Positions 8 to 24,081 of a DNA stretch of 64,000 nt are shown here, piece by piece. How positions within the stretch are numbered: the stretch's first letter is position 1; the number at the start of each line of letters is the position of its first letter. Origin of the DNA: a virus; IMG/VR virus record IMGVR_UViG_3300047469_000395, positions 6,644-70,643 of that record. One strand, given 5' to 3'. The notes under the pieces were generated by a model. That model worked only from the letters and a program-made list of their open reading frames with translations. It made no database searches and was not told the DNA's origin. Both the position numbers and the translations under genes were made by a program.

Positions 8-706
8 TCATGCTACAATTTCCTTATGAAAACGATAATTGAATTTTTCGATCCGTGGGTCACGCGGCTTTGCGCGATAATCTTTGCCGGAGCTGTGACG
101 ATGGCGGGCTATAACTGGATAGCTTGGTCTGACATGAAAGCGTCCGATTGGGCTGCCTGGGTTCAAGCGGTTGGTGCTATCGCCGCCATCATTGGTGCGT
201 TTCAAATCGCGCAGCGGCAGCACGCCGAAGAGCGCATACTTGACGAACGTCGCCGCATTGAAAGCGCACGAGATCGCGAGAACGCAGACATATTTGCCCG
301 GACTCTGGCGGCGAAAAACATGGTCCAGGTGGCTACCCAGGCGATTGATGCGCTCGACAGCGTGGTGAAGGTCGCGCGTGACCCGACGCTTATTTACGAG
401 ATAGGCGACTATCGGGAGCGTCTGGGTCAACTGCGGGAGTTGATTGACGGCCTGATCACAGCCAGCACTGACCATATTGCCGTTGTCGCCGCGTTGAACC
501 TTTCGCGGTATATGACGCAGACAATCAGCGACACTGCGAATACGGGGGGAGCAATGTCGGAAATGCTTCTGCAGCGCTGTGAGAAGCGTGCTTTGGACGC
601 GACTAACTTCGTAGCCAACCTCTACGGCTTGCAAGCAAGACTGATTAGCCTTTGCGCTGACCGTGAAATCTCGTTGGACGCACGCGATTTTGAATGACAG
701 TGCCAT
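8..706 (-). CDS. Putative 'bridge' ORF spanning the 26..697 gene
   Basis: Starts 3 nt after the RdgC stop; ends AAGGAAATTGTAGC-ATGA, overlapping the ATG (11-9) of a next gene running off the window. Confidence 0.4.
   Translation of the reverse strand: MALSFKIACVQRDFTVSAKANQSCLQAVEVGYEVSRVQSTLLTALQKHFRHCSPRIRSVADCLRHIPRKVQRGDNGNMVSAGCDQAVNQLPQLTQTLPIVAYLVNKRRVTRDLHHAVERINRLGSHLDHVFRRQSPGKYVCVLAISCAFNAATFVKYALFGVLPLRDLKRTNDGGDSTNRLNPGSPIGRFHVRPSYPVIARHRHSSGKDYRAKPRDPRIEKFNYRFHKEIVA
26..697 (+). CDS. Counter-oriented membrane protein (two N-terminal hydrophobic segments + helical domain)
   Basis: 223 aa ORF opposite to the left operon; motif DWAAWVQAVGAIAAI resembles that in 20969..21628. Confidence 0.75.
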   Translation: MKTIIEFFDPWVTRLCAIIFAGAVTMAGYNWIAWSDMKASDWAAWVQAVGAIAAIIGAFQIAQRQHAEERILDERRRIESARDRENADIFARTLAAKNMVQVATQAIDALDSVVKVARDPTLIYEIGDYRERLGQLRELIDGLITASTDHIAVVAALNLSRYMTQTISDTANTGGAMSEMLLQRCEKRALDATNFVANLYGLQARLISLCADREISLDARDFE

Positions 707-709
707 GGA

Positions 710-1927
710 TTAAGTCGCCGCTGCGATTAGCGTTCGATTCCCATTAGATTCCAACGGCCCTACGACTGTACCCTCCATGGCTTCCAGTAACCGCGCCGCG
801 CGGTTGTAACCCACTCTTAGGTGGCGCTGGATCAGCGATATCGAAGCACGCTGGTTGGTGCGCACCACGGTGACGGCCTGGTCGTACAGCGGGTCGCTGG
901 CGCTGCCGTCGGCGGCGGGCTGGTCGTCCAGACCGCGACCATTTACCGTGCGCTGCTCCCGCACTGGCTCGTCGCCTTTGGCTGGTGCCGTAGCGGCCGT
1001 GCGCGATGCCGCCTTCTGTTCGCCCGGCGCATCCATCGTCGCCTCGCCGCCCAGCGCCTCAACCAGGTCGGCCATCAGCTTGGCGAGTTCGCCGGTCATC
1101 AGCATGAAGTCGCCATCGAAGCGCTCGTCGTCGTTGCGAATCGAGCCGCGCGAATCTTCCGTCAGCACGTCCAGCAGCTTCACCGATTTGACGGCCAGGC
1201 TCTCGTCCAGCACGAAGCTGATCTTGCTTTCCCAGGTCATGGCCAGGCGCGTGCACTGCTTGCCGGCCTTGATGTGCTCCGCAACCTCGGCGCCGCCCAG
1301 TGTGTGGCGTTTGTACTGGACCTGCGCCTTGCTCTCGCCAGTGGCGCGAAGGGTAGCATCCTGGTCGACCGTGAAGCCGGGCGGCGCCTCGTCGCTTTGC
1401 AGCCATTCGGTCATCACGCCCACCGGCGAGCGCCGCACCCGCAGGCTTTCCAGCGGCATGCGGTCGACCGCCTTCAGCAGCAGCTTGATCACGTCGTCCG
1501 CCTTGCTCGGGCTGGCCGCGTCCACCACCAGCCAGCCGTTTTTCGGATCGATCCAGGCGAGGGTGGTGCTGGCGATGGAGAACGCGCGCGGCAGCAGTTC
1601 GTCGGCGACGCGCTCCTTCAGTTCCTTCATCGCCTTCTTGCCCGGGGCGAAGCCCTGTGCTTCTTCCATTTCCGCGGCGCGCGCCTTCGTCACCTGGTTG
1701 ATTACGGTGGCCGGCAGCAGCTTCTTCTCGCTCTGCAGCTTGATCAGGTACTGGCCGTTGACGACGTGCACCAGTTGGTCGGCGGCGCGCGGCGGCGCCC
1801 AGCCTTCGCGCAACAGTTCGTTGCTGCTGGCCGGCGCGAACTTGTTCGAGGATAGCGCGCTGGCCAGCGCCTCGGCGGTCATCTGCCAGTTGCGCGGCAG
1901 GCGGTAAATTTGTAAGTTCTTAAACAT
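710..1927 (-). CDS. rdgC: Recombination-associated protein RdgC fused to a C-terminal FtsK gamma (winged-helix) domain
   Basis: N-term MFKNLQIYRL...KKLLPATVI...ELLPRAF typical of RdgC; C-term DPLYDQAV..RASISLIQRHLRVGYNRAARLLEAME is the FtsK-gamma signature. Confidence 0.9.
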   Translation of the reverse strand: MFKNLQIYRLPRNWQMTAEALASALSSNKFAPASSNELLREGWAPPRAADQLVHVVNGQYLIKLQSEKKLLPATVINQVTKARAAEMEEAQGFAPGKKAMKELKERVADELLPRAFSIASTTLAWIDPKNGWLVVDAASPSKADDVIKLLLKAVDRMPLESLRVRRSPVGVMTEWLQSDEAPPGFTVDQDATLRATGESKAQVQYKRHTLGGAEVAEHIKAGKQCTRLAMTWESKISFVLDESLAVKSVKLLDVLTEDSRGSIRNDDERFDGDFMLMTGELAKLMADLVEALGGEATMDAPGEQKAASRTAATAPAKGDEPVREQRTVNGRGLDDQPAADGSASDPLYDQAVTVVRTNQRASISLIQRHLRVGYNRAARLLEAMEGTVVGPLESNGNRTLIAAAT

Positions 1928-1938
1928 CGTTGGTCCTA

Positions 1939-2403
1939 TCAAAAGCCGCGCGGCGGCGCTTCGTGAAACTCGACGCCCATCTGGCCGCCGAACGCGTGAA
2001 TCTGTTCCATGTACTGGGCAAAGCCCTTGACCGTGAGGTCGGTCGAACTACCCACCAGCACCGGCTGGCCGCGCGGGTCGTAGTCCCACTTGCGGTAGGC
2101 CTCGTCCTTGCACAGCTCCGGGTCGAACTCGTCCGGCAGGAACTGCTGCTTGAAGTACTCGTGCCAGATTTCGGCGCTGTACTGCCGCCCGTCGCTCCAG
2201 CACTGCTCGGCGATGTCCTTCAGCGGCCCCGCCCACATGCGCGCGTTCTGGTCCAGCTTCCGTGCCTTGACCTCTTCGCGCACCAGCAGTTCCAGTGGCC
2301 GCTCGGCGTCCAGCGGCACATTGCGGAGCAGGGCGATGGCGCGGTCGACTTGCTCCTGGCCGCGCAGCAGCAATTTGCGCTGCTCGAATTTCTGGCGGGT
2401 CAA
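1939..2403 (-). CDS. NinB/Orf-like recombination protein
   Basis: Motifs LDQNARMW..LKDIAEQ and SSTDLTVKGFAQYMEQIHAFG resemble the NinB family. Confidence 0.7.
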   Translation of the reverse strand: MTRQKFEQRKLLLRGQEQVDRAIALLRNVPLDAERPLELLVREEVKARKLDQNARMWAGPLKDIAEQCWSDGRQYSAEIWHEYFKQQFLPDEFDPELCKDEAYRKWDYDPRGQPVLVGSSTDLTVKGFAQYMEQIHAFGGQMGVEFHEAPPRGF

Positions 2404-2588
2404 GGCGGTGCTCCCGCTGCGATCGACACCGCTACCTTGCCAAACAGCAGCGGCGCCACCGCGCGCGTCTCGTCCAGCGTCAGGCCCTTGATCGTGATCA
2501 GCTCACCGTTCGGGCGTTGCACCGCAGCGCCGAGCGTTCCTTCGTCGTCCAGCTGACCGACTTCAACGAGAGTGCCGACGGCGATCAT
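2400..2588 (-). CDS. Hypothetical phage protein
   Basis: 62 aa; start/stop overlaps with both neighbours. Confidence 0.6.
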   Translation of the reverse strand: MIAVGTLVEVGQLDDEGTLGAAVQRPNGELITIKGLTLDETRAVAPLLFGKVAVSIAAGAPP

Positions 2589-2830
2589 TCGACATCCGAA
2601 ACCAGCGCCCAGCCGGTTGCGCCTTTGTGCATGCGGCGGATAGATAAGCGTGAGGCATACGGCTTGCCGTTCGATTTCGTCACGCCGTTGGTGGTGACGA
2701 AGGCGCCGCCATCGACTACGCGATCGACGGTCACAGTGCGTTTACCGCCATTGGTGCGCTTATCGAGATCCTTCCAGACCTGACCTGGCTTTACGGCGAT
2801 GCCTTCCTTCGTGACGTTGGAGTTGCTCAT
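2585..2830 (-). CDS. Hypothetical phage protein (SH3-like, VKPGQVWKDLDKR)
   Basis: 81 aa; ATGA-coupled. Confidence 0.65.
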   Translation of the reverse strand: MSNSNVTKEGIAVKPGQVWKDLDKRTNGGKRTVTVDRVVDGGAFVTTNGVTKSNGKPYASRLSIRRMHKGATGWALVSDVE

Positions 2831-3063
2831 GCGGTCTCCGCCTTCACCGGCTTCACGCGATCCAGCAGGTAGCAGCCGCTGATGCCCTTGAGCCAGATCA
2901 CCGCGCTGTGGCCGCTCAGCACCTGCGCCTCGCTGGTGGTGATCGTCTCGCGAGTCTCGCCGCTGTCAAGGCGCACGGTGACGGCGGCGCCGACTTGGTG
3001 CGCGGCGTTGAACTTGTCGCAGGTCGCCTGCAGCTGGGCGGCCGATGGCGGGCGGCGGTTCAC
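2827..3063 (-). CDS. Hypothetical phage protein
   Basis: 78 aa; coupled overlaps. Confidence 0.65.
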   Translation of the reverse strand: MNRRPPSAAQLQATCDKFNAAHQVGAAVTVRLDSGETRETITTSEAQVLSGHSAVIWLKGISGCYLLDRVKPVKAETA

Positions 3064-3614
3064 GCTGCTTGCTCCTGCGGCTGGTCCGCTGCGGCCTCGG
3101 CGGCCGGCGCCGGCGTCGGCACGCCCATGTTCTGGTACGGGTGCTTCTCGGCGTGCGGCTTGATGTGCTGCTTGAAGTGGCGGCCGATCGATTCCGCGCC
3201 AGCAAAAGCGGTATATTCCTCGGCGGTGAAGTTGCCGTAGTGGTAGACGTTGCCCGGAGCGCCCTTGTGGAAGAACTGGATGGCCAGGGTCTGGCTGGCG
3301 GCGTCGTGGCCGATCGCGGCGATCTGGCTGGAAGCGACTTTCATCAGCGGTATGGAATTTGCGGTGTGCACAGTTCGCTGCCCGGACGATTCGCTGCTGA
3401 TTGACGCGTTGTGGTGATTCACTATTTCGGATACGGCGACATGTGTCGCCTCATCGCCGCCCACGTAGGCGATCAATTCGCCAGTGGAGTCATGCACGAT
3501 TGCCGAGCCTTTTTCAGGATCGGAGCCATTCCAACGCTCGCGCAGTTTAACGTTCGCCAGCGTTGGGTTGCCGGCCACAATCGCGGAAATCTCTGCTATT
3601 TGGATGTGTTGCAT
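3060..3614 (-). CDS. KTSC domain-containing protein
   Basis: C-term VASSQIAAIGHD...LAIQF...YHY.N...Y.AF..AESIGRHFKQHIK matches the KTSC consensus. Confidence 0.8.
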   Translation of the reverse strand: MQHIQIAEISAIVAGNPTLANVKLRERWNGSDPEKGSAIVHDSTGELIAYVGGDEATHVAVSEIVNHHNASISSESSGQRTVHTANSIPLMKVASSQIAAIGHDAASQTLAIQFFHKGAPGNVYHYGNFTAEEYTAFAGAESIGRHFKQHIKPHAEKHPYQNMGVPTPAPAAEAAADQPQEQAA

Positions 3615-3637
3615 TTAGTGCTCCTGGTGGTTGATGG

Positions 3638-5527
3638 TTATGCTGCGAATTTGGCTTGTGCCGCGCCGATGTGGCGCATCATGGCTGCGCACATGCGCGG
3701 GAAATCGGCATCGTGGTACAGCTTGGATGCGCGGTCGGTAGCGGCCGGCTCGAAACCCAGGGCGCGCAAGCCGTCGACGGTGATGGCCATCGGCGCGATG
3801 CGCTCGTTGATCTGGCCCAGCTTGAGCGTTGGCGGCGCGTCCGGCGCGGCGGCAGGCGTGCTGAACAGGTCGCCAACAGGGCCAGGCGCAGCTGCCGCAG
3901 CCTGCGCGTCTGCCAAGTCGGTCAGGCGCGCCTGGTCGGCGAGCGCGGTGGCTTGGGCGATTGCAGCGGCGGCGGTGGTCGGACGCTCGGTCTGGGCGGC
4001 CTGCTGCGTACGTTGCTCGTCAGCTTGGCGCTGCGCGGCGAGATGCGCAGCCTGCGCTTCGAGTTGGCGTTTCGTTTCGGCGGCGACACGTGCCTGTTCG
4101 GTGGCTTGGCGGTCGGCATCCGCTTTGCGCTCGGCGGCCAGCTTCTCAGCGGCGGCGGTCTCGGCCTTCGCGCGCTCTTGCTCTTCGATCTGCTTGCGCA
4201 GCGCTTCGGCTTTGGCCAGCTCTTCGGCTTTTTTCTTCTCGATGCGGGTGTTCGCCACCAGCTGGAAATCTTCCTGCGCCTTGCCAATGAGCTGTTGCAG
4301 GTCCGCGAACAGGCCAGCATGTTCGCCCACATTGGCGTTGTACCAGGTAAGTTTCGCGCGCAGTTCGGTCGCGGTCTGGCTGGTGGCGACCTTGCCGCTG
4401 GCCAGCGCCGCGTCTACCGCATCCTGCAAGCCCTTGATGGTGCGCTTGCCCTTCGCGGCGCCAGCGAAATCCGGCACCTGGTGTGCCAGGCGAATCGGGG
4501 CGATCTCCGTTTCGAGTTGAGCGACGTGGGCCTCGAAGTTGCGCTTGCCTTCGTTGATGATCGTTTCTTTGCGGTTCAGCTTCTCGTTGTCGATCAGCTT
4601 GGACAGCGTCAACCGGCGCGCGCGGATCATTTCTTTCACCTGGTCGGCGACGCGTAGCACATCATCCACGGTGGCCATCTGCGCGGTGGCGGCCGTCTTG
4701 GCGTGCTCGATGTCGCGCTCGGCCTTTTCGCAGTCCTTCACGGCCTGGTCGGCGTCGATAAAGTCCTCGTCGGTTTCCAGTGTCGTCTTGATCCCGGCCA
4801 GGAACAACTCGGCGGCCGCCTTAAATGCCGGCAGGTTGCTTTGTGTGACCTCGCCGCGCGTCTGGATGACCAGAGCAGGCAGGGTGATCGCCGGCGCGGC
4901 GACGTGCGTCACTTCCGATGCCGCCGGCGTGTAGCTCGCCACGTCCGCGTGGAACTGCTCCCAACCGCCGATGATTTGCTGGCGCAGCACCAGGTCAGGC
5001 TCGTACCAGAAGTGCTTCTCCTCAACCAGGTTGTCATAGGCATCCCAGCGGGTGGCCGAGAACAGCGCGCGCTCGGCGCTGACGATGTGGAGTTGCTGCT
5101 CCATCTGAACTCGGTACACCAGCGGCAGGCCGGCAGCGCTGTCGCAGGCGCGTATGTCGTTGTTGAGGGATTTGTGCTCCCACACAACCGTTTCGCACAT
5201 GGTCAGCCCGTCGAAGGACGCCGACAGCCGGCCCAGCGACGCGATGACCGGGTAGAGCTCCATGCCGATGATCTTTTCGGCCAGTGGGCGCGCAAGCGCC
5301 TCGTAGCGGTGGCCATCATCGAACAGCTTCTGGGTCCGCGCGTCGACTTCGGGCGAAATGCCGCTGGCGCACTGGCGGATCAGATCAGAGCGCGTCTTGT
5401 ACGGCGAGCACGACATCATGGCCGGCGCGTCGCTGGCGTTGTCGTGTTCGACGCGGTAGGCGTCCCACTCCGGGGTGCCTTGCACCAGTTCGTGGATTTC
5501 GCGGTGAATGTTTGGGTCGCGTTGCAT
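3638..5527 (-). CDS. YqaJ/lambda-exonuclease family nuclease with long coiled-coil C-terminus
   Basis: QGTPEW..YR, ASDAPAMM, GHRYE, LSASFDGL, WEHK, QMEQQL motifs; Ala/Glu/Lys-rich tail. Confidence 0.85.
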   Translation of the reverse strand: MQRDPNIHREIHELVQGTPEWDAYRVEHDNASDAPAMMSCSPYKTRSDLIRQCASGISPEVDARTQKLFDDGHRYEALARPLAEKIIGMELYPVIASLGRLSASFDGLTMCETVVWEHKSLNNDIRACDSAAGLPLVYRVQMEQQLHIVSAERALFSATRWDAYDNLVEEKHFWYEPDLVLRQQIIGGWEQFHADVASYTPAASEVTHVAAPAITLPALVIQTRGEVTQSNLPAFKAAAELFLAGIKTTLETDEDFIDADQAVKDCEKAERDIEHAKTAATAQMATVDDVLRVADQVKEMIRARRLTLSKLIDNEKLNRKETIINEGKRNFEAHVAQLETEIAPIRLAHQVPDFAGAAKGKRTIKGLQDAVDAALASGKVATSQTATELRAKLTWYNANVGEHAGLFADLQQLIGKAQEDFQLVANTRIEKKKAEELAKAEALRKQIEEQERAKAETAAAEKLAAERKADADRQATEQARVAAETKRQLEAQAAHLAAQRQADEQRTQQAAQTERPTTAAAAIAQATALADQARLTDLADAQAAAAAPGPVGDLFSTPAAAPDAPPTLKLGQINERIAPMAITVDGLRALGFEPAATDRASKLYHDADFPRMCAAMMRHIGAAQAKFAA

Positions 5528-5563
5528 CGTGATTCCTTCGTAATGGTTGTGCGCGGGCTGGAC

Positions 5564-6403
5564 TTATTTGGCCCAGGAGTTGATGGTTTTTTGCTGGTCC
5601 TCGGTCAGCGTCGCCTTCGTGTTGAGAAAGCGGATCATGGCGGCCGGGGTTTTCTTGCCTTCCTCAACCATCCGCCTCCACTCGGCGGAGTTCGCGGCAA
5701 AGCGCTCTGCGCTGTACTCAGGAAGACTGTTCTTTTGTGCGCCCGCGCCGCGACCACTGGGTTGCTCGGTCGCTCCGGCGTCTTGGCGGGCCGCGCCGCC
5801 GCGACCGTCATCATCAAGTTGCTCATTTGTGGCGAGGCCGCAAGCTGCCAACAGGGTGTAGCGCTGCAAGTAAGTGATGGTCGACGCGATCTGTTGGATC
5901 GCATTTTTTTTGCCGGAGGCGTCCGGCGGCGCCTGCATGCGTGTTACTTCCGAGTGCCCCATGGAATGCGTGATCGTGCAGGTGACCGATACCATGCCGC
6001 TTGCCGGCTGTTCGGTGTCCCAGCGGTGCGAGAAGCCTTGCTTCCCCAGTCCTTCGACGATTGCGCCGCACACGCTGCCCAGAGTTGCATGCATGTAGCT
6101 CGTGTTGCTGCCATCGCGGCCATCGAAGCTGACAAACTTGTCCTTCACGATCTGCGGTGGATTGCGCTTGAACTCTGCCATGGCCGCGACGTAGGCCTTA
6201 CGGGCCTGATTCGCCTCCAGGCGCTCTTGCAGTTCAATGAAAGTGCGCAGTTCTTCCATCGAGGCGCCGCGCGCAGCCGCGTGGGCGACCAGCTCAAATG
6301 GGGTGGTCGGCACGACGGCCAAAGGCTGTGTTGCCGGCACCGCCACGGCGCGCGGTTCGGCCGCCTGCCGCTCCATTTCCAGTACGTCGTTCATTTGACC
6401 CAT
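5564..6403 (-). CDS. ERF-family single-strand annealing protein
   Basis: H.MGHSE, KNAIQQIASTITYLQRYTL, DDDG motifs; adjacent to the exonuclease (start could be 6394). Confidence 0.85.
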   Translation of the reverse strand: MGQMNDVLEMERQAAEPRAVAVPATQPLAVVPTTPFELVAHAAARGASMEELRTFIELQERLEANQARKAYVAAMAEFKRNPPQIVKDKFVSFDGRDGSNTSYMHATLGSVCGAIVEGLGKQGFSHRWDTEQPASGMVSVTCTITHSMGHSEVTRMQAPPDASGKKNAIQQIASTITYLQRYTLLAACGLATNEQLDDDGRGGAARQDAGATEQPSGRGAGAQKNSLPEYSAERFAANSAEWRRMVEEGKKTPAAMIRFLNTKATLTEDQQKTINSWAK

Positions 6404-8256: not shown

Positions 8257-8259
8257 GGA

Positions 8260-8403: not shown

Positions 8404-8469
8404 ATAATAGCAAAGCTATTTTATAGATGCAATAGCGGTGCTATTAAATAATTGTGTAGCGTTGCTATT
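8404..8469 (-). promoter_or_regulatory. PL promoter with three OL operators
   Basis: Palindromes AATAGC-N3-GCTATT at 8406-8420 and 8431-8445, variant at 8455-8469; minus strand TTGCAT-17-TATTAT. Confidence 0.85.
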
Positions 8470-11077: not shown

Positions 11078-11216
11078 TTGAGCATTTGCCTTAGATGCTT
11101 AAATCATCTGATATTGCCCGGGTTTACGAGGTGCGTTTGCAAGCAAAAATAAAAAAATGCTTGCAATATGCATTTTGCATGCTAATATTTCGAAAAATCT
11201 ACTGTAGAGGAAAACA

Positions 11217-13480: not shown

Positions 13481-14343
13481 AGATCGGTAGTCGAGAGCAT
13501 TTTTCCCGTCGTTATGTCATACAACACAATCTTTGAGAGCTGGATAACGACGGCATCACCGGAGTAAATCAGCTCAGTAGGATTATCGATCGTTGGTTTG
13601 ATGTAATTTACATATTGAGCCAGGAAAGGGGCCTTGATCGTACCAACATACAGCACTCCAATGTTTTCTTTCAACGTCCTAGCGTAGTCGGCCGGAACCT
13701 TAAAGAAGAAACTGTGAGGGAGCGTGACCTGCCGCGTTATTGTGTTGACGTTCGAAAATGCTACTGCGCAAGCGCTATGGCTCGTCTGGTGTACATTTAC
13801 CTTCTTGCCGTATCCGTTCTCTCCAACATATTCCTTGCTATCGGTGATGCGCGATTCCACTAGAACTGATTGCACAAAGTTGCTACCCACCCTGGTGCTC
13901 AGGCTGCCCGACGTGAAGTATGTAACTTGCATTCCCTCCGTATCTGCATTGTAGGTGACCGAGGTTACAGGCCTTTCGGAGGTGAAGGCTACGATACTGC
14001 TACCTGTGATGCTTCCGTACAGGACATCGCTTTCCAAATGGGCGACTCGTTCTTTATACGCAGTGCTGCTTTCGAACTCGTCCTTCTGCGGATTGGATAA
14101 CTTCAAAATTCTCGTAATCTCTCGGCAACTATGCCCTCGATACCCAGCTGGAAGCACTTCGCCTGCCGGATCGAATGGCTCGTGCGCATACTTTGCCAGA
14201 GAGTCGGCTACTTGAATTTTTTGCCGAGAAGAGGGTTGCGCAGTGCTCCGCTTTTGTTGTGGCTTCGAAATCTTCTCTTGACCAAAAGCGGAGTAGGTTA
14301 CGCCCAACGAAAGCGCAATCAGTGCGGAAAGTATTTTTTGCAT
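13477..14343 (-). CDS. Secreted hypothetical protein
   Basis: Signal peptide MQKILSALIALSLG..AFG; KDEFESSTAY..R motif; directly downstream of cI. Confidence 0.75.
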   Translation of the reverse strand: MQKILSALIALSLGVTYSAFGQEKISKPQQKRSTAQPSSRQKIQVADSLAKYAHEPFDPAGEVLPAGYRGHSCREITRILKLSNPQKDEFESSTAYKERVAHLESDVLYGSITGSSIVAFTSERPVTSVTYNADTEGMQVTYFTSGSLSTRVGSNFVQSVLVESRITDSKEYVGENGYGKKVNVHQTSHSACAVAFSNVNTITRQVTLPHSFFFKVPADYARTLKENIGVLYVGTIKAPFLAQYVNYIKPTIDNPTELIYSGDAVVIQLSKIVLYDITTGKMLSTTDL

Positions 14344-15179: not shown

Positions 15180-15245
15180 TATAGCAATGCTATTATTCAT
15201 CGCAACGAGCAATGCTATTGACTTATGTAATAGCGGTGCTATTAT
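15180..15245 (+). promoter_or_regulatory. OR operators (three) and PR promoter
   Basis: TATAGCAATGCTATT 15180-15194, ACGAGCAATGCTATT 15205-15219, AATAGCGGTGCTATT 15229-15243 (identical to 8431-8445); TTGACT..TATTAT. Confidence 0.88.
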
Positions 15246-16517: not shown

Positions 16518-16596
16518 CGGCGCCGGCCACCAAGTTTGCAACACCTGAATCATCAGCATCACCCGAAAGCCTGAATCACTTTTATAGGAAAACATC

Positions 16597-16869: not shown

Positions 16870-16955
16870 ATCCTCGACCAGCCAGTTGCATACGCCACCA
16901 ATGCAAAGGAGCCACCATGAATCCTCTTGTAAACCCATAGGAGAGCAGAACCACC

Positions 16956-17732
16956 ATGCAACAGCACCTCGCAGTAAAGAATGCTCCCGATATCGAGATG
17001 CGCCTCGTCGCAATCGCCGATCTGTACGTTGATTCAGGAAGCGGCGGTTATCAGCGCGCACTGGACGTGATCCGCGCCAATAGCTACGCAAAGAACTTCG
17101 AGCCAGGCGCGATGAAGGCGATCAACGTCTCCGTGCGCCCCGATGGCCGAATGATGATCACCGACGGACAACACACCGTGCATATGGCCGGTCAACTGGG
17201 CTACACGCATATCCAGGCGATGGTGGTGCATGGTTCCCGCGAAAGCGAGGCCAAGTGCTTTTTAATTGGGAATGGCAAAGGCAAAAAAAACGCCACGTCC
17301 AAACAACGGCATGACGCTGCGCTCGTCGCCAGAGATCCTGTCGCGCTCGCTGCACAGTCCATCATGAATACATATGATATAGCGGTCAGCACCGGTGGCC
17401 TCCGTAAGGGGTTCACCAATGCGATTGGCGCCATTACCTCGTATTCAAACGCGAATCCCGCGGCGTTGAAGCGCGCAATGGACTGCATCGCCTCGGCCTG
17501 GAAGGAGGACGACTGCGCTTGGTCTGGTGTGGTGCTGCGCGGCATGTTTGATCTTGCGGTTGGCGCTCACGATATGGAGTTGATTGCCGCAAAGCTGCGC
17601 AAGCGCAAGGCGACGGCAAGGCAGGTGATGGACATTGCCAGCGCGCTGCAGACAGCTGCTGGCGCACGCGGCGGCGGTGCTGCCCACGCAAAGGCGGCGA
17701 TTTTGAAGGCGTGTGGAATCAAGGTGCCCTGA
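16956..17732 (+). CDS. ParB-like (DUF6551-like) protein
   Basis: YQRAL, VSVRPDG...TDGQHT, EAKCF motifs. Confidence 0.7.
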   Translation: MQQHLAVKNAPDIEMRLVAIADLYVDSGSGGYQRALDVIRANSYAKNFEPGAMKAINVSVRPDGRMMITDGQHTVHMAGQLGYTHIQAMVVHGSRESEAKCFLIGNGKGKKNATSKQRHDAALVARDPVALAAQSIMNTYDIAVSTGGLRKGFTNAIGAITSYSNANPAALKRAMDCIASAWKEDDCAWSGVVLRGMFDLAVGAHDMELIAAKLRKRKATARQVMDIASALQTAAGARGGGAAHAKAAILKACGIKVP

Positions 17733-17786
17733 ACTCAACGAGCGGTAACGGGATGCCGCGCCCCGATGCGCGCGGCGACATAAAAG

Positions 17787-18038
17787 ATGGAGAACCGCAT
17801 GTCATTGACTGCACAAGCGCAACCTGGCGCGCCAGCGCTGCTGGACACCCTGATCGACAAACTGAAACTGAAGAATGATGCGGAGCTGGCGCGTGCTTTC
17901 GAAGTGGCTCCGCCAGTGATCAGCAAGATCCGTCACCGCAAGTTGCCGTTCGGCGACAGCATGATCCTGAAGGCGCACGAAAAGTTCAACTTCGCCGTGG
18001 CTGACATCCGCGCCGGTCTGGCCGAGAAGACGCAGTAA
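17787..18038 (+). CDS. Small HTH DNA-binding protein
   Basis: LKNDAELARAFEVAPPVISKIRH. Confidence 0.75.
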   Translation: MENRMSLTAQAQPGAPALLDTLIDKLKLKNDAELARAFEVAPPVISKIRHRKLPFGDSMILKAHEKFNFAVADIRAGLAEKTQ

Positions 18039-18041
18039 TCG

Positions 18042-18167
18042 ATGAGTCAGCAACACCAGAAAAAAGAGCAGGGAGTCGAGCCGCTGCCGACTGAGCCGGG
18101 CCATGTGATGGCTCGGGGGCATTACGAGCGCCTAGCGCGCGAAGCCGCCGCTGAACAGCAGAAATAG
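18042..18167 (+). CDS. Small hypothetical protein (41 aa)
   Basis: ATG 3 nt after previous stop; fills the gap. Confidence 0.4.
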   Translation: MSQQHQKKEQGVEPLPTEPGHVMARGHYERLAREAAAEQQK

Positions 18168-18214
18168 AAAAGGCCGCGTTGCAGCGCGGCCCGATCACCT
18201 ACAAGAGGAATTAC

Positions 18215-18421
18215 ATGCCAGCTATTTTACAGCAAGGACCGGCGCCAGCACAGACTGGCACGCCGGAGGAGAAAGTCACACTCGCGGCCCGCGAATGGCG
18301 CGAAAAAGACCGTGAGCACATCGCTGAGAAGAACGCGACTACCGGCGCTGCGGAGTACCGCGCGCGCCGCAAGCTGCGCATGACGGTCGACCTCACCGAC
18401 AGGAAGGCGGGCCACCCATGA
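18215..18421 (+). CDS. Hypothetical phage protein
   Basis: GAGG RBS before MPAILQ. Confidence 0.6.
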   Translation: MPAILQQGPAPAQTGTPEEKVTLAAREWREKDREHIAEKNATTGAAEYRARRKLRMTVDLTDRKAGHP

Positions 18422-18783
18422 GGAAGATCCACTTACTTGTACTTCCGGGTCGCCCAGTAATAAGCGGCCGCGAACGCCTCGTCTGCCGTCGGGAAGACCT
18501 TATCGGCAACGCTGTCGTGATGAGCAAGTCCGCTCGGCTGTTCTGTGTTAGTAATGGAAGAAATGTAGTACACGAATCCTTCGGTATCACGCGAGACGCG
18601 TTCGACCTCAATTCTCATGCGCCATTTGCCTATCTGTACAACTTCGTTGATGCTATTCATGCGCGATTCCCCGGTGAGAATGCGAGAGTAGCACGTAGTG
18701 GCGAAAACTCCGGTCGGGTATGCGGCACGTCTTACCCTGCGCATGTCACCATTGCGCGCCGCGCAGCGGGAGCGCGGGCATGA
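18418..18783 (+). CDS. Putative 'bridge' ORF spanning 18433..18660
   Basis: ATGA overlap with upstream stop and ATGA overlap with methylase start. Confidence 0.45.
   Translation: MRKIHLLVLPGRPVISGRERLVCRREDLIGNAVVMSKSARLFCVSNGRNVVHESFGITRDAFDLNSHAPFAYLYNFVDAIHARFPGENARVARSGENSGRVCGTSYPAHVTIARRAAGARA
18433..18660 (-). CDS. Counter-oriented small hypothetical protein
   Basis: MNSINEVV...FPTADEAFAAAYYWA; lower GC. Confidence 0.65.
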   Translation of the reverse strand: MNSINEVVQIGKWRMRIEVERVSRDTEGFVYYISSITNTEQPSGLAHHDSVADKVFPTADEAFAAAYYWATRKYK

Positions 18784-20957
18784 AGCGCGACAACTTCAAT
18801 TTTGATCTGCCTCTGGAAGACGTTGCCACCATGATGGCATCGCCGGTTCCAGCATCACGGCCAGCGGCGCGCCGTACTCCGCGCCGCGCGAGTCGCGACA
18901 TCATGACGCCGCAGCTGGACTTGGGCCATGAGCTGATCATTGACAACTTCGCCGGCGGCGGCGGCACCAGCACCGGCCTGGAAGAAGCGTTCGGCCGGCC
19001 GGTCGATATCGCGATCAACCATGATCCGGAAGCCCTGGCGCTGCACGCCATGAATCACCCGCACACCAAGCACCTGTGCGAGAGCGTGTGGGACGTAGAT
19101 CCTATCAAGGTCACGAACAACCAGCCCGTGGGCCTTGTCTGGCTTTCGCCGGACTGCAAACACTTCAGCAAGGCCAAGGGCGGCACGCCGGTGGCGAAGA
19201 ACATTCGCGGCCTGGCCTGGGTGACGCTGCGCTGGGCGGCGAAGTGCAAGCCGCGCGTGATCATGCTGGAAAACGTTGAAGAGTTCAAAACGTGGGGGCC
19301 GCTGCTGGTCGACGCCGAGGGCAACTTCCGCCCTGATCCGGCGAAGAAGGGCAAGACTTTCGAGAGCTTCCTGCGCCAGCTGCGCGGCCACGGCTACACG
19401 GTCGACCACCGCGAGCTGCGCGCCAGCGACTACGACACGCCGACAATCCGGAAGCGCTTCTTCCTCGTGGCGCGCCGCGACGGCCTGCCGATCCGCTGGC
19501 CGGCGCCGACCAACGGCGCGCCGACTTCGGCCGGCGTGCTGGCCGGAAACCTCGCACCGTGGCGAACTGCCGCCGAATGCATCGATTGGTCCATTCCGTG
19601 TCCGTCGATCTTCGAGCGCAAGCGCCCGCTGGCGGACGCCACGCTGCGCCGCATCGCGAAGGGCATCCAGCGCTACGTAGTGGACGCGGAAACGCCGTTC
19701 ATCATCGGGCAGGGCGGCCCGATCTACTCGGGCAAACCGGTGCCGGCCGACCAACCGTTCGGCACGCTGACGACGGAGAACCACCGCGCCATTGTCGTGC
19801 CCAGCATCGTGCCGGTGACGCACCAAGGCGGCTACCGCAGCGAATCCGTTCACGAGCCGTTCCGCACGATCACCAGCGCGCAGCGCGGCGAGAAGGCGCT
19901 GGCCGTCGCCACCATGGTGCAGACCGGCTACGGTGAGCGCGATGGCCAGACGCCGCGTGCGCTCGATATCGAGAAGTCGCTGGGCACGGTGGTGGCCGGC
20001 GCAAGCAAGGCGGCGCTGGTGACCGCCTTCCTCAACGAGCACGCCAACTCCAGCAACCAGCGCACCATGCCTGCCGACCAGCCGCTACGCACCATCTGCG
20101 CGCAGGTCAAGGGCGGTCACTTCAGCGCCGTCTCGGCGACGCTGGTCGGCGTGGGCGGCCGTGCCGGAGACAGCCGGCCGCGTGGTGCTGACGAGCCGGC
20201 GGCTACGATCACGGCCAAGGGCGACACCGCGATCGCCACAGCGTTTCTCGCAAAGCATTACACCGGCGTCGTAGGCTCGGATCTCGAAGACCCGCTCGGA
20301 ACGGTCACAGGCTGCGATCACCATAGCCTGGTTACTGCGAATCTGATCCACATGGGTCACGGTGAAGGCGCGGGCGGTGGAAAGCGTTTCAGCCATGGAA
20401 TCCGTGATGTCGAGCAGCCAATCAATACGATCACCGCGAGCGGCGCCACAGCTGGTGTCGTGACCAGCAGCCTGGTCAAGTTGCGCGGCACCAGCAGCAC
20501 GGCCGACATGGACGAGCCGCTGCACACGGTCAGCGCCGGCGGCCAGCACCACGCCGAAGTGCGCGCCTTCCTGGTGAAGTACTACGGCACCGATCAAGAT
20601 CCGCGCCTCGAAGAACCGCTGCATACGGTCACCACCAAGGACCGCTACGGCCTGGTGACGATCGAGGGCGTGGACTATCAGATCGTCGATATCGGCCTGC
20701 GCATGCTGGAACCGGCGGAGTTGTACCGCGCGCAGGGTTTCCCGGCCAGCTACGTGATCCGCGAGATCCCTGATCCAAAGCTGCTGTTCAAGGACGGACA
20801 CCAGGCCGACGGCGATCCGCTGGCGCTGCCGCGTGTGCCGCTGACGAAATCAGCCCAGGTCCGCATGTGCGGTAACAGCGTCTGCCCGCCGATGGCCCGC
20901 GCGCTGATCCAGGCGAACTTCATGCACGAACGCGAGATTGGTTCGGTGGCAGCGTGA
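18780..20957 (+). CDS. DNA cytosine-C5 methyltransferase
   Basis: IDNFAGGGG (I), SPDCKHFS (IV), ENVEEF (VI), RKRFF (VIII), GNSV (X); long TRD with repeated P..T(I/V)T units. Confidence 0.93.
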   Translation: MKRDNFNFDLPLEDVATMMASPVPASRPAARRTPRRASRDIMTPQLDLGHELIIDNFAGGGGTSTGLEEAFGRPVDIAINHDPEALALHAMNHPHTKHLCESVWDVDPIKVTNNQPVGLVWLSPDCKHFSKAKGGTPVAKNIRGLAWVTLRWAAKCKPRVIMLENVEEFKTWGPLLVDAEGNFRPDPAKKGKTFESFLRQLRGHGYTVDHRELRASDYDTPTIRKRFFLVARRDGLPIRWPAPTNGAPTSAGVLAGNLAPWRTAAECIDWSIPCPSIFERKRPLADATLRRIAKGIQRYVVDAETPFIIGQGGPIYSGKPVPADQPFGTLTTENHRAIVVPSIVPVTHQGGYRSESVHEPFRTITSAQRGEKALAVATMVQTGYGERDGQTPRALDIEKSLGTVVAGASKAALVTAFLNEHANSSNQRTMPADQPLRTICAQVKGGHFSAVSATLVGVGGRAGDSRPRGADEPAATITAKGDTAIATAFLAKHYTGVVGSDLEDPLGTVTGCDHHSLVTANLIHMGHGEGAGGGKRFSHGIRDVEQPINTITASGATAGVVTSSLVKLRGTSSTADMDEPLHTVSAGGQHHAEVRAFLVKYYGTDQDPRLEEPLHTVTTKDRYGLVTIEGVDYQIVDIGLRMLEPAELYRAQGFPASYVIREIPDPKLLFKDGHQADGDPLALPRVPLTKSAQVRMCGNSVCPPMARALIQANFMHEREIGSVAA

Positions 20958-21667
20958 AAAACACCGCTTTACGGTCCGTACAGCTCCTCCGGCGTGGGTG
21001 GCGGAGCATGAGTCCTCGCTGCATGGGTGCATCGAAGAGCTATCACGCTAAACCGCTCTGCGAGTTCATCGCCAAGCCGCTCCCACTTTTCAGCGTCTCT
21101 TTTTTGCAATGGAGCTCCGTCGCTTGCACTCACATATTCGGATATTGCTCGGCAAATGATATCCAGCCTACCCTGCGCATATGCGAGTTTGCTAGCGAAT
21201 CCGTTTTCGAGCGCCGCGAGCACCATCAGTTCCTCCGTCGTCGCTGGAAGGTACGTTATTCCGAGGATATATATAGCTTCCTCAGCGGGACTCCTGTATG
21301 GCGCGCCCTCCAAGTTTTCAAACATCAGGTTGTCTCGAAAAGCGCGAAGCTGGTTGGCGAGCAGCTCAACTCTTGGTGCCAAAGCTGCTGCAGTGATATT
21401 TGCCCTGAGAACTTCCTCGCTGCGTCGTCGCCTGCTTTCTGTCGTGGCTATCCACATCGTGCCAAGCAGAGCGCCAACCGTTCCTATCGATCCTATCCAT
21501 GTGCCCCAATCGCCGGCAGTCATGGTTTTCCAACCGTGGTGATCGAAAAGGAATGCAATGTATTGATGGATGGCGACGAGCATTGCGATGCCGAACAGTG
21601 TGAGCACGGTCCATTTCTCGAATTTCATTGCAGCCCCAATAGTTACCAAAAAGGAATCCTATCATGA
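20954..21667 (+). CDS. Putative 'bridge' ORF spanning 20969..21628
   Basis: 237 open codons; GTGA overlap upstream, AAGGA..ATGA overlap downstream. Confidence 0.45.
   Translation: MKNTALRSVQLLRRGWRSMSPRCMGASKSYHAKPLCEFIAKPLPLFSVSFLQWSSVACTHIFGYCSANDIQPTLRICEFASESVFERREHHQFLRRRWKVRYSEDIYSFLSGTPVWRALQVFKHQVVSKSAKLVGEQLNSWCQSCCSDICPENFLAASSPAFCRGYPHRAKQSANRSYRSYPCAPIAGSHGFPTVVIEKECNVLMDGDEHCDAEQCEHGPFLEFHCSPNSYQKGILS
20969..21628 (-). CDS. Counter-oriented membrane protein, similar to 26..697
   Basis: Two hydrophobic segments, DWGTWIGSIGTVGALLG, then charged helix. Confidence 0.75.
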   Translation of the reverse strand: MKFEKWTVLTLFGIAMLVAIHQYIAFLFDHHGWKTMTAGDWGTWIGSIGTVGALLGTMWIATTESRRRRSEEVLRANITAAALAPRVELLANQLRAFRDNLMFENLEGAPYRSPAEEAIYILGITYLPATTEELMVLAALENGFASKLAYAQGRLDIICRAISEYVSASDGAPLQKRDAEKWERLGDELAERFSVIALRCTHAARTHAPPPTPEELYGP

Positions 21668-22101
21668 TGTATGACTTATCGCGCCCAGAGCGCCAGCACC
21701 GGGCCATCGCCAACGAAAAGCCGGGCCCGGTGCTGCAATCGAAGCGCTGCACCTGCGGCAAGGCGGCACCGGCAAAAGTGCTGTTGCAGCACAAGAAGTG
21801 CCACGGCTGCCAGGTGGCCGACCGCGTCGCTACGCTGCAGGACGGCGACTTGGACATTCTGCGTCACATGGTCGGTGCGACGCCGCACCACCCGATGGTG
21901 CGCTGGGGCTTCCGCAACGAATACTTGGTGAACCGCCGCGATGCGGCTGCACTGGAGCGCCTGGTCGCCGCCGGCTTCGCGCGTGCTAGCCAGCAGCTGC
22001 TGCAGCTGCAGTACTTCCATGCAACCGACGGCGGTTGCCGCGTGGCTGGCCTGACTGCGAAGCGCGCACGCGTGGCGCTGTCGCTGGGAGCGCGGCCATG
22101 A
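21664..22101 (+). CDS. Hypothetical phage protein with Cys motifs
   Basis: CTCGK..CHGC; LRHMVGA..WGFRN. Confidence 0.7.
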   Translation: MMYDLSRPERQHRAIANEKPGPVLQSKRCTCGKAAPAKVLLQHKKCHGCQVADRVATLQDGDLDILRHMVGATPHHPMVRWGFRNEYLVNRRDAAALERLVAAGFARASQQLLQLQYFHATDGGCRVAGLTAKRARVALSLGARP

Positions 22102-22463
22102 CTGCAGTCGCACAAGTGATCAACGCAGTGGGAGCGGAGCGCCCATCAAGGAACTTTCAACGCATCGATCATCTCGCGAAGCGATTCAACGACTGTCGCG
22201 TGAGCGGCATTGAAATCCGTGTAGAGATTGTCAAAGTCAGGACGAGCTACGATTGTCGCCTTGGAAAGCCACGCTCCCTTATGGGCGCTGGGATTGACAA
22301 GCTCAGCTTTGCCGCTGGCGCAGTACTGATATGGATCGCCAGGCTTCCAGTATGGCGGGACCTCGTCCCAGCATGCCGTCGAAATCAACCAACCTTCGTG
22401 CGAAATCTGCATCGCTGGAATCATGATTACCTCCTGACGGTAGAGGAGGTAATCGTAGCATGA
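22098..22463 (+). CDS. Putative 'bridge' ORF spanning 22146..22424
   Basis: ATGA overlaps at both ends. Confidence 0.45.
   Translation: MTAVAQVINAVGAERPSRNFQRIDHLAKRFNDCRVSGIEIRVEIVKVRTSYDCRLGKPRSLMGAGIDKLSFAAGAVLIWIARLPVWRDLVPACRRNQPTFVRNLHRWNHDYLLTVEEVIVA
22146..22424 (-). CDS. Counter-oriented small hypothetical protein
   Basis: AGGAGG RBS; 92 aa; HEGWLIST motif similar in style to YRGWDITI of 23731..23988. Confidence 0.7.
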   Translation of the reverse strand: MIPAMQISHEGWLISTACWDEVPPYWKPGDPYQYCASGKAELVNPSAHKGAWLSKATIVARPDFDNLYTDFNAAHATVVESLREMIDALKVP

Positions 22464-23686
22464 ACCAAGCCGATATTTTCGCTGCCGGCGCCAAGCGCCT
22501 GCAGATGACCGACTCCATCGAAATGACGATTCAGTCGCTGCTGGCCTACGGCGCGTCGCACGACCACTGGGGCATAGCCTGGTCCGGCGGCAAAGACAGT
22601 AGCGCCACGCTGACCCTGATCATCTGGCTGCTGGACACCGGCCGCGTGCCACGCCCTAAAACCCTGACCGTTTTCTACGCTGACACGCGTCAGGAGCTAC
22701 TTCCGCTGGCGCACTCCGCCCAGCAGATCATCGACGAGCTGCGCGAGCGCGGCATCCAAGTTGAAGTCGTGACCGCGACGCTGGACAAGCGCTTCATGGT
22801 CTACATCCTGGGGCGCGGCGTGCCGCCGCCGAACAACAATACGTTGCGCTGGTGCACGCGGCAGATCAAGATCGATCCGATGCAGCACGCGCTGGAGCAG
22901 CGTCTCGCGGAGCTCGATGGCCAGGTACTGATGATCACCGGCGTGCGCCAGGGGGAACGCGCTATCCGCGACCAGCGCATTGAAATGAGTTGCAGCAAGG
23001 ACGGCGCCGAGTGCGGCCAAGGCTGGTATCAGAAGGTGCTGCCAGAGGCGAAGGGTTTGCGCGGCCGGCTCGCGACGCTTGCGCCGCTGCTGCACTGGCG
23101 CGTCTGCCATGTGTGGGAGTGGTTGCGCCATTGGGCGCCTGGCGCCGAGTTCGGCGACTGGAGCACGGCCGCGATCGCGGAGGCCTATGGAGGCGACGAG
23201 GCGGAGGAGATCAACGCGCGCACCGGCTGCACTGGCTGCCCGCTGGTTGACTCCGATATGGCGCTGGATAACATTCTGCTGAGCCCGCAGTGGGCCTACC
23301 TGGCGCCGCTGAAGCGCATCAAGCCGCTTTGGCGTGAACTGCGGTTGCCGAAGCATCGACTGCGCAAGGCCGGCCTTGAGATCCTGAGGAGTGGAAAAAC
23401 GGCGGCCAATCCGCAGCGCATGGGGCCGCTGACCTTCGAGGCGCGCCTAATGGGCCTCGCGACGATCCTCGGCATCCAAGCTGAGGTGAACGAGGCCGCG
23501 CGTGCCGCCGGCCGGCCGCTGGTGGACCTAATCAACGCCGAGGAGGCACGCATCCGCGAGCTGATCAAACTGGAAACCTGGCCAGATGGCTGGGACGGCG
23601 ATGAGCCGATCGCCACCACCATCATGGATACCGTGTATGCGAATGGCGCGGTTCAGCCGCGGTTGTTTTCGGAGGCCGATCTTTGA
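22460..23686 (+). CDS. PAPS-reductase family (DndC-like) PP-loop protein
   Basis: AWSGGKDSSA, ADT, PPP....RWCT..IKIDP, TGVR..E, ARTGCTGCPL. Confidence 0.85.
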   Translation: MNQADIFAAGAKRLQMTDSIEMTIQSLLAYGASHDHWGIAWSGGKDSSATLTLIIWLLDTGRVPRPKTLTVFYADTRQELLPLAHSAQQIIDELRERGIQVEVVTATLDKRFMVYILGRGVPPPNNNTLRWCTRQIKIDPMQHALEQRLAELDGQVLMITGVRQGERAIRDQRIEMSCSKDGAECGQGWYQKVLPEAKGLRGRLATLAPLLHWRVCHVWEWLRHWAPGAEFGDWSTAAIAEAYGGDEAEEINARTGCTGCPLVDSDMALDNILLSPQWAYLAPLKRIKPLWRELRLPKHRLRKAGLEILRSGKTAANPQRMGPLTFEARLMGLATILGIQAEVNEAARAAGRPLVDLINAEEARIRELIKLETWPDGWDGDEPIATTIMDTVYANGAVQPRLFSEADL

Positions 23687-24081
23687 TGCGCCGCTCACCC
23701 ATGAAGCCCGGCATCGCGCCGATGAACCCGTCAGCGTCGCAACGCGTCGATCAACTGCTTAGCCTCGCTGAGCAGCGCGCTGATGCACGCATCATCGGTC
23801 GGGAAGCTCCTGCCGCCCGTGCTGAGTACCTGCATTCGCGGATCGACCCAGTCGTCCGGATTCTCGCCTTGCTGCAATTCTGCCTCGGCAATAGCGGTGT
23901 ATCGCGAAGGGTGAATCTTGCTCGCGATATGACTGCACCGAATCGTTATGTCCCAGCCTCGATAAGGTTCCTGAATGATGTGGGGCATCTCACGCCTCCG
24001 AATTTTGTTGCAAATAATATTACTCGAATTGCTGAGTTTGATCATAGCAATTTGCTATCGAATCAAGGCGGTCTGCTATGA
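23683..24081 (+). CDS. Putative 'bridge' ORF spanning 23731..23988
   Basis: TTGATG overlap upstream; ATGA overlap with NinG-like start. Confidence 0.45.
   Translation: MMRRSPMKPGIAPMNPSASQRVDQLLSLAEQRADARIIGREAPAARAEYLHSRIDPVVRILALLQFCLGNSGVSRRVNLARDMTAPNRYVPASIRFLNDVGHLTPPNFVANNITRIAEFDHSNLLSNQGGLL
23731..23988 (-). CDS. Counter-oriented small hypothetical protein
   Basis: GGAGG RBS before MPHIIQEPYRGWDITI...AKQLIDA. Confidence 0.7.
   Translation of the reverse strand: MPHIIQEPYRGWDITIRCSHIASKIHPSRYTAIAEAELQQGENPDDWVDPRMQVLSTGGRSFPTDDACISALLSEAKQLIDALRR

Follow-up and report, generated by a model that had tools for sequence, protein, structure and literature searches.

We analyzed a window of 64,000 nucleotides (nt) that spans bases 6644-70643 of a 70.6-kb virus record (IMGVR_UViG_3300047469_000395) and is about 62% G+C. 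The record is from a temperate phage of the double-stranded DNA type whose host is probably a GC-rich member of the Burkholderiales. Five genes in the early operons of this phage point against the operon, and each of them is nested inside an open reading frame (ORF) that runs in the operon's direction and is codon-aligned with the nested gene. We will refer to the operon-sense ORFs as bridges and to the genes inside them as n1 to n5. Our favored explanation, to which we assign a probability of roughly 55%, is that the nested genes are ambigrammatic cargo with promoters of their own, and that the sense ORF is kept open for the transit of ribosomes and not for its peptide.

A sequence-only reading of this DNA had pointed out the five pairs, and all ten ORFs are present in the ORF list, with canonical stop and start junctions at both ends. 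(Bridge 4 begins at an in-frame ATG within the listed ORF 22035-22463 on the + strand, and three nested genes start at ATG codons, at 18660, 21628, and 23988, that are internal to longer ORFs of the list, namely 18433-18744, 20969-21649, and 23731-24045 on the - strand.) Bridge 1 (8-706, - strand, 232 codons) starts 3 nt past the stop codon of the RdgC gene (TAA-TCC-ATG). It encloses n1 (26-697, + strand), which encodes a protein of 223 amino acids with two transmembrane helices and a four-helix bundle. The other four bridges are on the + strand and their nested genes are on the - strand. Bridge 2 (18418-18783, 121 codons) has an ATGA overlap at either end and encloses n2 (18433-18660, 75 amino acids), the least supported of the nested genes, which has a single homologue. 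Bridge 3 (20954-21667, 237 codons) starts with GTGA on the stop codon of a methylase gene and encloses n3 (20969-21628, 219 amino acids), a paralogue of n1. Bridge 4 (22098-22463, 121 codons) also has an ATGA overlap at either end, and it encloses n4 (22146-22424, 92 amino acids), which has the Shine-Dalgarno sequence AGGAGG 5 nt before its ATG. Bridge 5 (23683-24081, 132 codons) starts with TTGATG (TTGA, and also TGATG) on the stop codon of a PAPS-reductase-like gene, ends on the NinG gene, and encloses n5 (23731-23988, 85 amino acids), which has a GGAGG Shine-Dalgarno sequence. All five bridges end with an ATGA that overlaps the next gene's ATG. In other words, each of the five pairs has the geometry of coupled genes, with a start at or over the upstream stop and a stop over the downstream start, like ordinary neighbors in this phage. 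These junctions and the codon alignment of each pair are as the earlier reading had described them. The aligned sense frame has no internal stops, while sense frames +1 and +2 have 3-10 stops each, so the openness is limited to the codon-aligned frame.

The counter-oriented nested ORFs are the real protein-coding genes. G+C content at the third codon position (GC3) cannot decide which strand is coding, as it is about 0.54-0.70 on both strands of the pairs (versus 0.81-0.88 in the flanking operon genes). Instead, we examined where substitutions fall between homologues. In all 6 distinct full-length comparisons (70-84% DNA identity; cases 2, 4, and 5), substitutions concentrate at codon position 3 of the nested gene. 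The counts at nested positions 1/2/3 are 19/18/35 for n2, 25/21/50 for n4, and 15/13/35, 22/20/50, 27/25/60, and 26/17/46 in the four comparisons for n5. We also judged the conservation of each frame by scoring both frames of the same pair of sequences. (This replaced a survey with a cut-off of 70% identity. Under that cut-off, bridge 5 seemed to be conserved, which we rejected because the cut-off wrongly favors antisense frames of close homologues.) The nested frame is ahead for n1 (1020 vs. 262 bits), n3 (270 vs. 84 bits), n5 (851 vs. 479 bits), and n2 (139 vs. 103 bits), and the peptide of bridge 1 is not conserved (186 vs. 738 bits across the two frames). Among 28 members of the n1/n3 family, which form 378 pairs, the nested frame reaches at least 40 bits in 219 pairs and the sense frame does so in 14. 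The sense frame does not outscore the nested frame in any of the 212 diverged pairs. Overall, the conservation of the sense frame is no more than the shared DNA imposes, and we see no purifying selection on it at the protein level.

Predicted structures point the same way. Given the family alignment, AlphaFold 2 (AF2) models n1 with a mean predicted local distance difference test score (pLDDT) of 91. For the sense peptide from the n1 DNA, with an alignment built likewise from 16 open members, pLDDT is 45.9 and the predicted template modeling score (pTM) is 0.27. The earlier suggestion that the sense peptides are antisense translations rather than folded proteins is borne out by this low score and by their lack of conservation. 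Family databases were of little help. None of the five sense peptides matched a Pfam or PHROG family, and no informative match to Pfam, PHROGs, or PADLOC was obtained with the nested or the sense strand of any pair (just three weak PHROG matches for n1 and n3, with E from 0.001 to 0.006). As a control for the assignment of strands, the 208-codon aligned ORF at 27783-28409 (- strand) was correctly called as the shadow of a real gene, the DUF1376 gene at 27603-28553 (+ strand; GC3 0.66). That pair resembles the bridge cases, but with the coding strand opposite. We also tried a classifier of amino acid composition that was trained on high-GC3 genes. It was dominated by GC3 and was right for 8 of 10 known closed members (those with stops in the aligned sense frame), and we did not rely on it.

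It could be argued that the coding has been assigned to the wrong strand and that the nested ORFs are spurious, as the sense ORFs fit the direction of the operon and the style of its junctions. This is refuted by the phase of the substitutions, the conservation within the family, the confidence of the predicted folds, and the Shine-Dalgarno boxes, all of which favor the nested frame, and also by the closed relatives, which retain the nested frame only. We see almost no chance that it is correct. Alternatively, both strands might encode functional proteins, following the example of Pseudomonas phage Fc02, in which gene 10 lies opposite olg1 and both strands are reported to be active (PMC9936078). 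The bridges are open and look like genes at both of their junctions, as one would expect for dual coding. However, in the 74 diverged pairs of family members in which both sense frames are open, the sense frame has a median of 18 bits and just 1 pair reaches 40; substitutions fall freely at position 1 of the sense codons; the sense peptides have no known family and, for n1, a poor predicted fold; and in relatives, bridges run across several unrelated cargo genes for up to 859-883 codons. We consider dual coding to be quite unlikely.

The aligned sense frames are open beyond what is expected by chance. TTA, CTA, and TCA are the only sense codons that are read as stops in the aligned opposite frame, and as the sequence-only reading had it, they are absent from the five nested genes (0 in 694 codons) and present in the un-nested P63C gene (11217-12221, + strand), with 7 TTA, 2 CTA, and 3 TCA codons. 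More broadly, all 14 of the other window genes that we checked (GC3 0.43-0.76) have at least one of these codons, for a total of 62 in 2,967 codons. The nested genes do not avoid codons that end in A: these account for 60 of 275 codons (22%) in six other four-fold families and for 46 of 103 codons in K/E/Q/AGR, and ATA accounts for 15 of 54. In contrast, CTA and TCA together account for 0 of 59 codons, and TTA for 0 of 13. Given the empirical codon usage of non-bridged low-GC3 genes from related phages, the probabilities that n1 to n5 would be open are 0.025, 0.40, 0.014, 0.22, and 0.19. The joint probability is 5.5e-6, or 8e-5 under a stricter null that uses co-oriented genes only. The signal is carried by the two long genes, n1 and n3.

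One alternative is chance: GC-rich DNA is prone to codon-aligned shadow ORFs, and the junctions could be coincidental. The aligned frame is the one that is most often open, and the 208-codon shadow of the DUF1376 gene shows that a real gene with low GC3 can have a long aligned ORF. Also, n2, n4, and n5 are unremarkable individually because their probabilities of being open are 0.19-0.40. On the other hand, shadow ORFs that are due to codon usage are associated with very high GC3. GC3 in the nested genes is just 0.54-0.70 or so, and so the usual excuse does not apply. (With GC3 at 0.55-0.70 and 22% A-ending codons in the control families, the joint probability is still around 1e-5.) The relatives of this phage provide a larger sample.

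For this survey, we took 80 loci around the PAPS-reductase-like gene and 25 loci around relatives of n1 and n3, and we excluded exact duplicate sequences. (We left out the second match in L082 and the match in L087, which were cut by the ends of the loci, and two matches in L092, which are on the same contig as L015.) The n1/n3 family is bimodal: 18 of 28 members have no stops in the aligned sense frame, 10 have 2-7 stops, and none have just one. Open and closed members have similar GC3 (0.42-0.71) and an identical proportion of A at the third position of control codons (0.228), yet the open group has 0 instances of TTA, CTA, or TCA versus 139 expected, and the closed group has 46 versus 80 expected. 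In 12 of the 18 open members, the bridge ends at an offset of -1 on the downstream sense start, while closed members either lack a next sense start or have it 32-250 nt off. By using the family alignment to scan species-representative genomes, we identified 68 members, of which 26 have no stops and 9 have one stop. Just 0.3-3.3 stop-free members were expected (P <= 1e-18). Chance does not account for the all-or-none pattern in either set (18/28 and 26/68 stop-free).

Orientation made a difference as well in the first sets of relatives. Among conserved genes with GC3 below 0.72 at the surveyed loci, 32 of 45 counter-oriented genes are stop-free, as compared to 5 of 31 co-oriented genes (P = 2e-6, Fisher exact test), 6 of 20 genes at operon boundaries, and 3 of 36 genes at the edges of loci. 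After dereplication at 60% identity, the counter-oriented clusters include 26 open and 10 closed, while the co-oriented clusters include 3 open, 2 mixed, and 17 closed. Open counter-oriented members are present in ten cargo families. Of the 32 open bridges in relatives, 30 end in TGA, and in 25 the next start is at -1. The 3' junction of the PAPS-reductase-like gene has at least 9 different stop-free cargo genes. For cases 2, 4, and 5, all 6 homologous regions keep the open frame and the ATGA: bridge 2 is open with the same junctions in L110 (80% DNA identity), bridge 4 is open in L001 (70% DNA identity), and bridge 5 is open and ends with ATGA in L001, L107, L108, and L109 (70-84% DNA identity). 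Some relatives have tandem arrays of cargo genes under a single antisense frame that is free of stops, spacers included, for 859 codons in L097 and for 883 codons in L138 (the ORF at 1310-3961 on the - strand). L120 contains five tandem members of the n1 family. The sequence-only reading had proposed to check whether different nested genes at the same junctions keep an open sense frame, and in many diverged relatives, across different cargo families, they do. Overall, the openness of the codon-aligned sense frame is kept by selection in a large subset of counter-oriented genes, and it is frame-specific and all-or-none. The features of an ambigram can be recognized here: the ORFs are antiparallel and codon-aligned, TTA, CTA, and TCA are avoided beyond what composition would explain, the openness is all-or-none, and the reverse ORF is not constrained as a protein.

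Could openness be a property of the cargo, and not of the operon that hosts it? If both strands are open, then a mobile gene could insert or invert either way without harm. This would explain why stop-free members are also found at boundaries or in other contexts: besides the 6 of 20 boundary genes in the survey, the stop-free members from the species-representative genomes include 5 at boundaries and 10 in unclassified contexts (genomic context was classified for part of the 68 members only). It could also account for the tandem arrays under one long antisense ORF in L138 and L097. But the bridges lack stops in the non-coding spacers as well, their ends coincide precisely with the start of the next gene, and co-oriented conserved genes are seldom stop-free where the expected counts are high. 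We think that this explanation is improbable.

Several results weigh against our favored explanation, and most of these come from a third set of relatives, which we retrieved by using RdgC and which is hence blind to cargo. (The survey sets consist in part of related phages, and some of their loci were found by way of the n1 family.) In the RdgC set, 4 of 17 counter-oriented genes and 6 of 25 co-oriented genes are stop-free, so the effect of orientation was not replicated (P = 1, Fisher exact test). Similarly, the observed and expected counts of TTA, CTA, and TCA are 78 versus 149 for counter-oriented genes and 49 versus 86 for co-oriented genes. The sequence-only reading had counted frequent stops at homologous loci as evidence against its proposal, and at the RdgC junction this is what we found: 12 of the 17 counter-oriented genes have 3-12 stops in the sense frame, and one more has a single stop. 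For example, L177 has the same 14-nt spacer and the same phase as case 1 in the window, yet it has 6 stops, and the closed cargo in L179, L173, L203, L168, and L199 (7-12 stops) lies in equally tight junctions. In these phages, the downstream gene is evidently expressed even though there is no bridge. Even within single contigs, the cargo in the rightward methylase/PAPS/NinG operon can be open while the leftward cargo after RdgC is closed (L108/L110 vs. L168; L109 vs. L203; L107 vs. L204; L102 vs. L177; L010 vs. L179). In addition, the downstream gene has a conserved Met-Ser start that includes the terminal ATGA, which is present in closed relatives too, and the downstream genes have their own Shine-Dalgarno boxes. 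This implies that coupling is not demonstrably needed, and it is doubtful that the downstream genes depend on it. The earlier reading had emphasized that coupling at both ends occurs five times: the geometry is there, but it is weaker evidence than it seemed. Finally, three of the five genes in the window (n2, n4, and n5) are so short that openness alone says little about them.

The lack of an orientation effect in the RdgC set might also be taken to favor chance. However, the co-oriented genes without stops in this set are short, with 1-3 expected codons, while the four counter-oriented genes without stops exceed the 0.13-0.78 that were expected (P from 8e-7 to 4e-3). Taking the window, the family counts, and the RdgC set into account, we consider chance to be very unlikely. 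The homologues with stops at the same junction imply instead that the bridge is facultative and is not required. The trait is beneficial in some contexts and is dispensable in others, as close homologues at identical junctions lack the open frame.

At the level of sequence motifs, signals near the cargo genes fit with independent transcription of the cargo against the operon. Just upstream of four of the five nested genes, on their strand, there is a motif that resembles an extended -10 element (TGnTAnnAT). For n1, the motif is at 11-19 (+ strand), 6 nt before the ATG, and it overlaps the ATG of the downstream operon gene by 1 nt. On the - strand, the motif upstream of n3 (21656-21664) abuts the ATG of the gene at 21664-22101, the motif upstream of n4 (22452-22460) overlaps the ATG of the PAPS-reductase-like gene by 1 nt, and the motif for n5 is at 24041-24049. 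The window contains 16 matches to TGnTAnnAT, as compared to 8.7 +/- 2.9 in shuffled sequences. Of 62 counter-oriented cargo genes in relatives, 42 have the motif nearby, and this holds for open as well as closed genes. On the operon strand, TGnTAnnAT is absent from all 62 of the spans that the cargo occupies, and the closed cases can hence not be attributed to it. A scan for promoters with two hexamers found nothing on the cargo strand and was not above shuffles. There are also matches to TGnTAnnAT just upstream of the P63C gene (11180-11188, + strand) and of a response-regulator gene (34229-34237, - strand), as well as at 13637-13645 (-), 15188-15245 (+), and 8404-8412 (-), which are by the start of a DUF3761 gene and in the region of the divergent early promoters. 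This phage's non-operon genes may have the motif as their general type of promoter. Another feature is an inverted repeat in the spacer that separates n4 from the PAPS-reductase-like gene (about 22427-22450), which places a Shine-Dalgarno sequence of the AGGAGG type on both strands, one for each of the divergent genes.

A sixth pair lies about 450-1090 bases upstream of the start of the window (G000:C1:5555-6223). A conserved gene of 210 amino acids on the + strand lies within an operon-sense ORF (5564-6223, - strand). The two frames score 173 bits (nested) and 0 bits, and TGnTAnnAT is 6 nt before the ATG of the nested gene, as for n1. This bridge ends 9 nt inside the 5' end of the nested gene, 24 nt short of the next gene's start.

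Because the promoter-like motifs oppose the operon, complementary RNAs are expected, and this suggests another role for the bridges. Translation of a bridge might prevent the operon's messenger RNA (mRNA) from pairing with the convergent cargo mRNA, or might shield it from RNases, and the hand-over at ATGA would be incidental. This would fit with the downstream genes having Shine-Dalgarno sequences of their own and with the conservation of the ATGA in closed relatives, and there is a precedent in narnaviruses, where translation itself is proposed to be what matters (PMC8316113). Sequence alone cannot separate this possibility from our favored explanation, and it shares the same difficulty, the unexplained closed homologues. 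We consider it to be rather unlikely.

Under our favored explanation, cargo genes would have inserted between the genes of the two early operons, and selection would then have purged TTA, CTA, and TCA from them. According to PMC8155312, the codon-aligned frame is the only one that synonymous changes alone can free of stops. Once the three codons were purged, an operon-sense ORF would extend from the upstream stop across the entire cargo gene and close with a TGA overlapping the next ATG. What is selected would be the open frame, and not the sequence or the fold of the bridge peptide. If the bridge is translated, the operon mRNA would keep its ribosomes as RNA polymerase passes through several hundred bases of antisense sequence. 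Untranslated RNA is a loading site for Rho, which leads to polarity (PMC12548453). The ribosomes' cover might avert the loading of Rho, or decay, or pairing with the cargo mRNA, and ribosomes would be delivered to the next start at the ATGA by termination and reinitiation. The ribosome conduits of the sequence-only reading are thus a plausible mechanism, and our results support that interpretation in part; it would also have the cargo expressed during lysogeny and perhaps silenced by lytic transcription. The C/G ratio of the bridge RNAs (0.94-1.18) is too similar to that of the flanking genes (0.87-1.03) to argue for Rho utilization (rut) sites.

The n1/n3 family contains proteins of about 200 residues with a helical domain that varies and two membrane helices, one of which has a conserved SDWAAWVQAVGSI-like motif. 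The second helix is rich in Trp and nearly invariant, and the four-helix bundle is hypervariable. The family is widespread in the prophages of Burkholderiales, which is where most relatives of this cargo family are found. No Pfam, PHROG, or PADLOC model describes the family. A search of the PDB with the model of n1 found generic four-helix bundles at best (E = 0.03), and a search of the Atlas found unnamed clusters, plus weak leads to DUF4760 (0.78) and to the membrane effector of retron Ec48 (0.77). A role in defense or exclusion would be a guess. We found no match to n1 in isolate phages by using tblastn, and no similarity between n4 and n5 by using BLAST. Pattern scans found no relative of n4, one of n2, and four of n5. 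The cargo genes have lower G+C than their surroundings, and the content at the fixed junctions varies. When we compared the region from 17000 to 25000 to phages by using megablast, only the PAPS-reductase-like gene and the methylase gene had matches, and phage Dobby does not have inserts at the corresponding junction.

The leftward early operon encodes ERF, YqaJ-like, KTSC, NinB, and RdgC proteins, and the RdgC gene, which also has an FtsK-gamma domain (710-1942, - strand), is upstream of case 1. The immunity region has lower G+C and contains the S24 repressor and the P63C gene. The rightward early operon encodes DUF6551, a C-5 methylase, the PAPS-reductase-like protein, NinG, an N6/N4 methylase, DUF1376, and a DnaC-like loader. 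In this operon, all on the + strand, the gene for the C-5 cytosine DNA methylase (18780-20957) is between cases 2 and 3, a gene for a 145-residue protein that belongs to no family (21664-22101) is between cases 3 and 4, the PAPS-reductase-like gene (22460-23686) is between cases 4 and 5, and the NinG gene (24078-24779) follows case 5. The methylase gene might start at 18720 instead, but the ATGA junction at 18780 is retained in L110, which is the sole homologue. The replication genes are separated from the structural genes by a region that includes a large serine recombinase (30781-32319, + strand) and a stand-alone response-regulator receiver gene (33838-34200, - strand).

The closest analogues of the bridges are in the ambigrammatic narnaviruses, which have a reverse ORF over the gene for the RNA-dependent RNA polymerase. 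According to PMC8316113 and PMC8155312, the second ORF of these viruses is also antiparallel and codon-aligned (the -0 frame) and is maintained by avoiding UUA, CUA, and UCA, and the trait is also all-or-none across highly diverged relatives, with no conserved reverse protein. It has been proposed that translation itself is what matters (PMC8316113), as would be the case for the phage bridges under our proposal. The phage differs in having a double-stranded DNA genome of 70.6 kb, and its bridges are the size of genes (75-230 codons, or about 880 codons over arrays) rather than the length of the genome. Also, the operon mRNA of the phage carries the second ORF, with stop-to-start joins to the flanking genes, and the open state is facultative among close relatives.

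Other known systems share some of these features. Operons with translational coupling and Rho-dependent polarity have the same kinds of junctions (ATGA, GTGA, and TGATG) that are found at both ends of the bridges. Unlike ordinary coupled genes, a bridge is not conserved as a protein and is antisense to a real gene. A review of Rho (PMC12548453) does not contain the terms "antisense" or "opposite strand". In Fc02, as in our phage, a lysogeny-side gene (olg1) lies opposite an ORF in the early lytic operon (gene 10) of a temperate phage with a GC-rich host. But both products in Fc02 were reported to be active proteins (PMC9936078), while the bridge peptide shows neither conservation nor a fold; the two systems are compared by their layout and products only. 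Shadow ORFs and other long antiparallel ORFs, which are common in GC-rich DNA, have the same frame relation (10.1101/724807 and PMC8850804). They are driven by high GC3, whereas GC3 here is 0.42-0.71, three codons are specifically missing, and the ends of the ORFs are phased to their neighbors. The cargo genes also resemble morons in that they have lower G+C than their surroundings, promoter-like motifs of their own, and variable content at fixed junctions. Phage morons are autonomous cargo genes between phage genes. Unlike morons, the nested genes are oriented against the operon, their opposite strand is kept open, and terminator-like sites are no more common than in shuffled sequences (6 vs. 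6.8). In the open-access literature that we searched, we did not find any earlier case of an operon-sense ORF that stays free of stops across a counter-oriented gene of a phage, or any precedent in DNA phages.

More broadly, we give about even odds to the idea that the narnavirus ambigram has a DNA-world counterpart in temperate phages of GC-rich Proteobacteria. Recoding just three codons would let an ORF that serves only for transit carry the lytic message across the cargo, which may have a role in defense or exclusion, and this could be on or off junction by junction. If so, it would explain how phages park wrong-way genes inside tightly packed operons without breaking them, and DNA phages would join a small group of RNA viruses in having ORFs that are selected only to be open. 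In annotation, gene callers would either settle on the incorrect strand or list the bridges as hypothetical proteins. For those who wish to embed an antisense gene in an operon, there would be a simple design rule: recode TTA, CTA, and TCA. And the long-standing question of how far translation protects bacterial mRNA from Rho could be tested directly with silent single-base changes.

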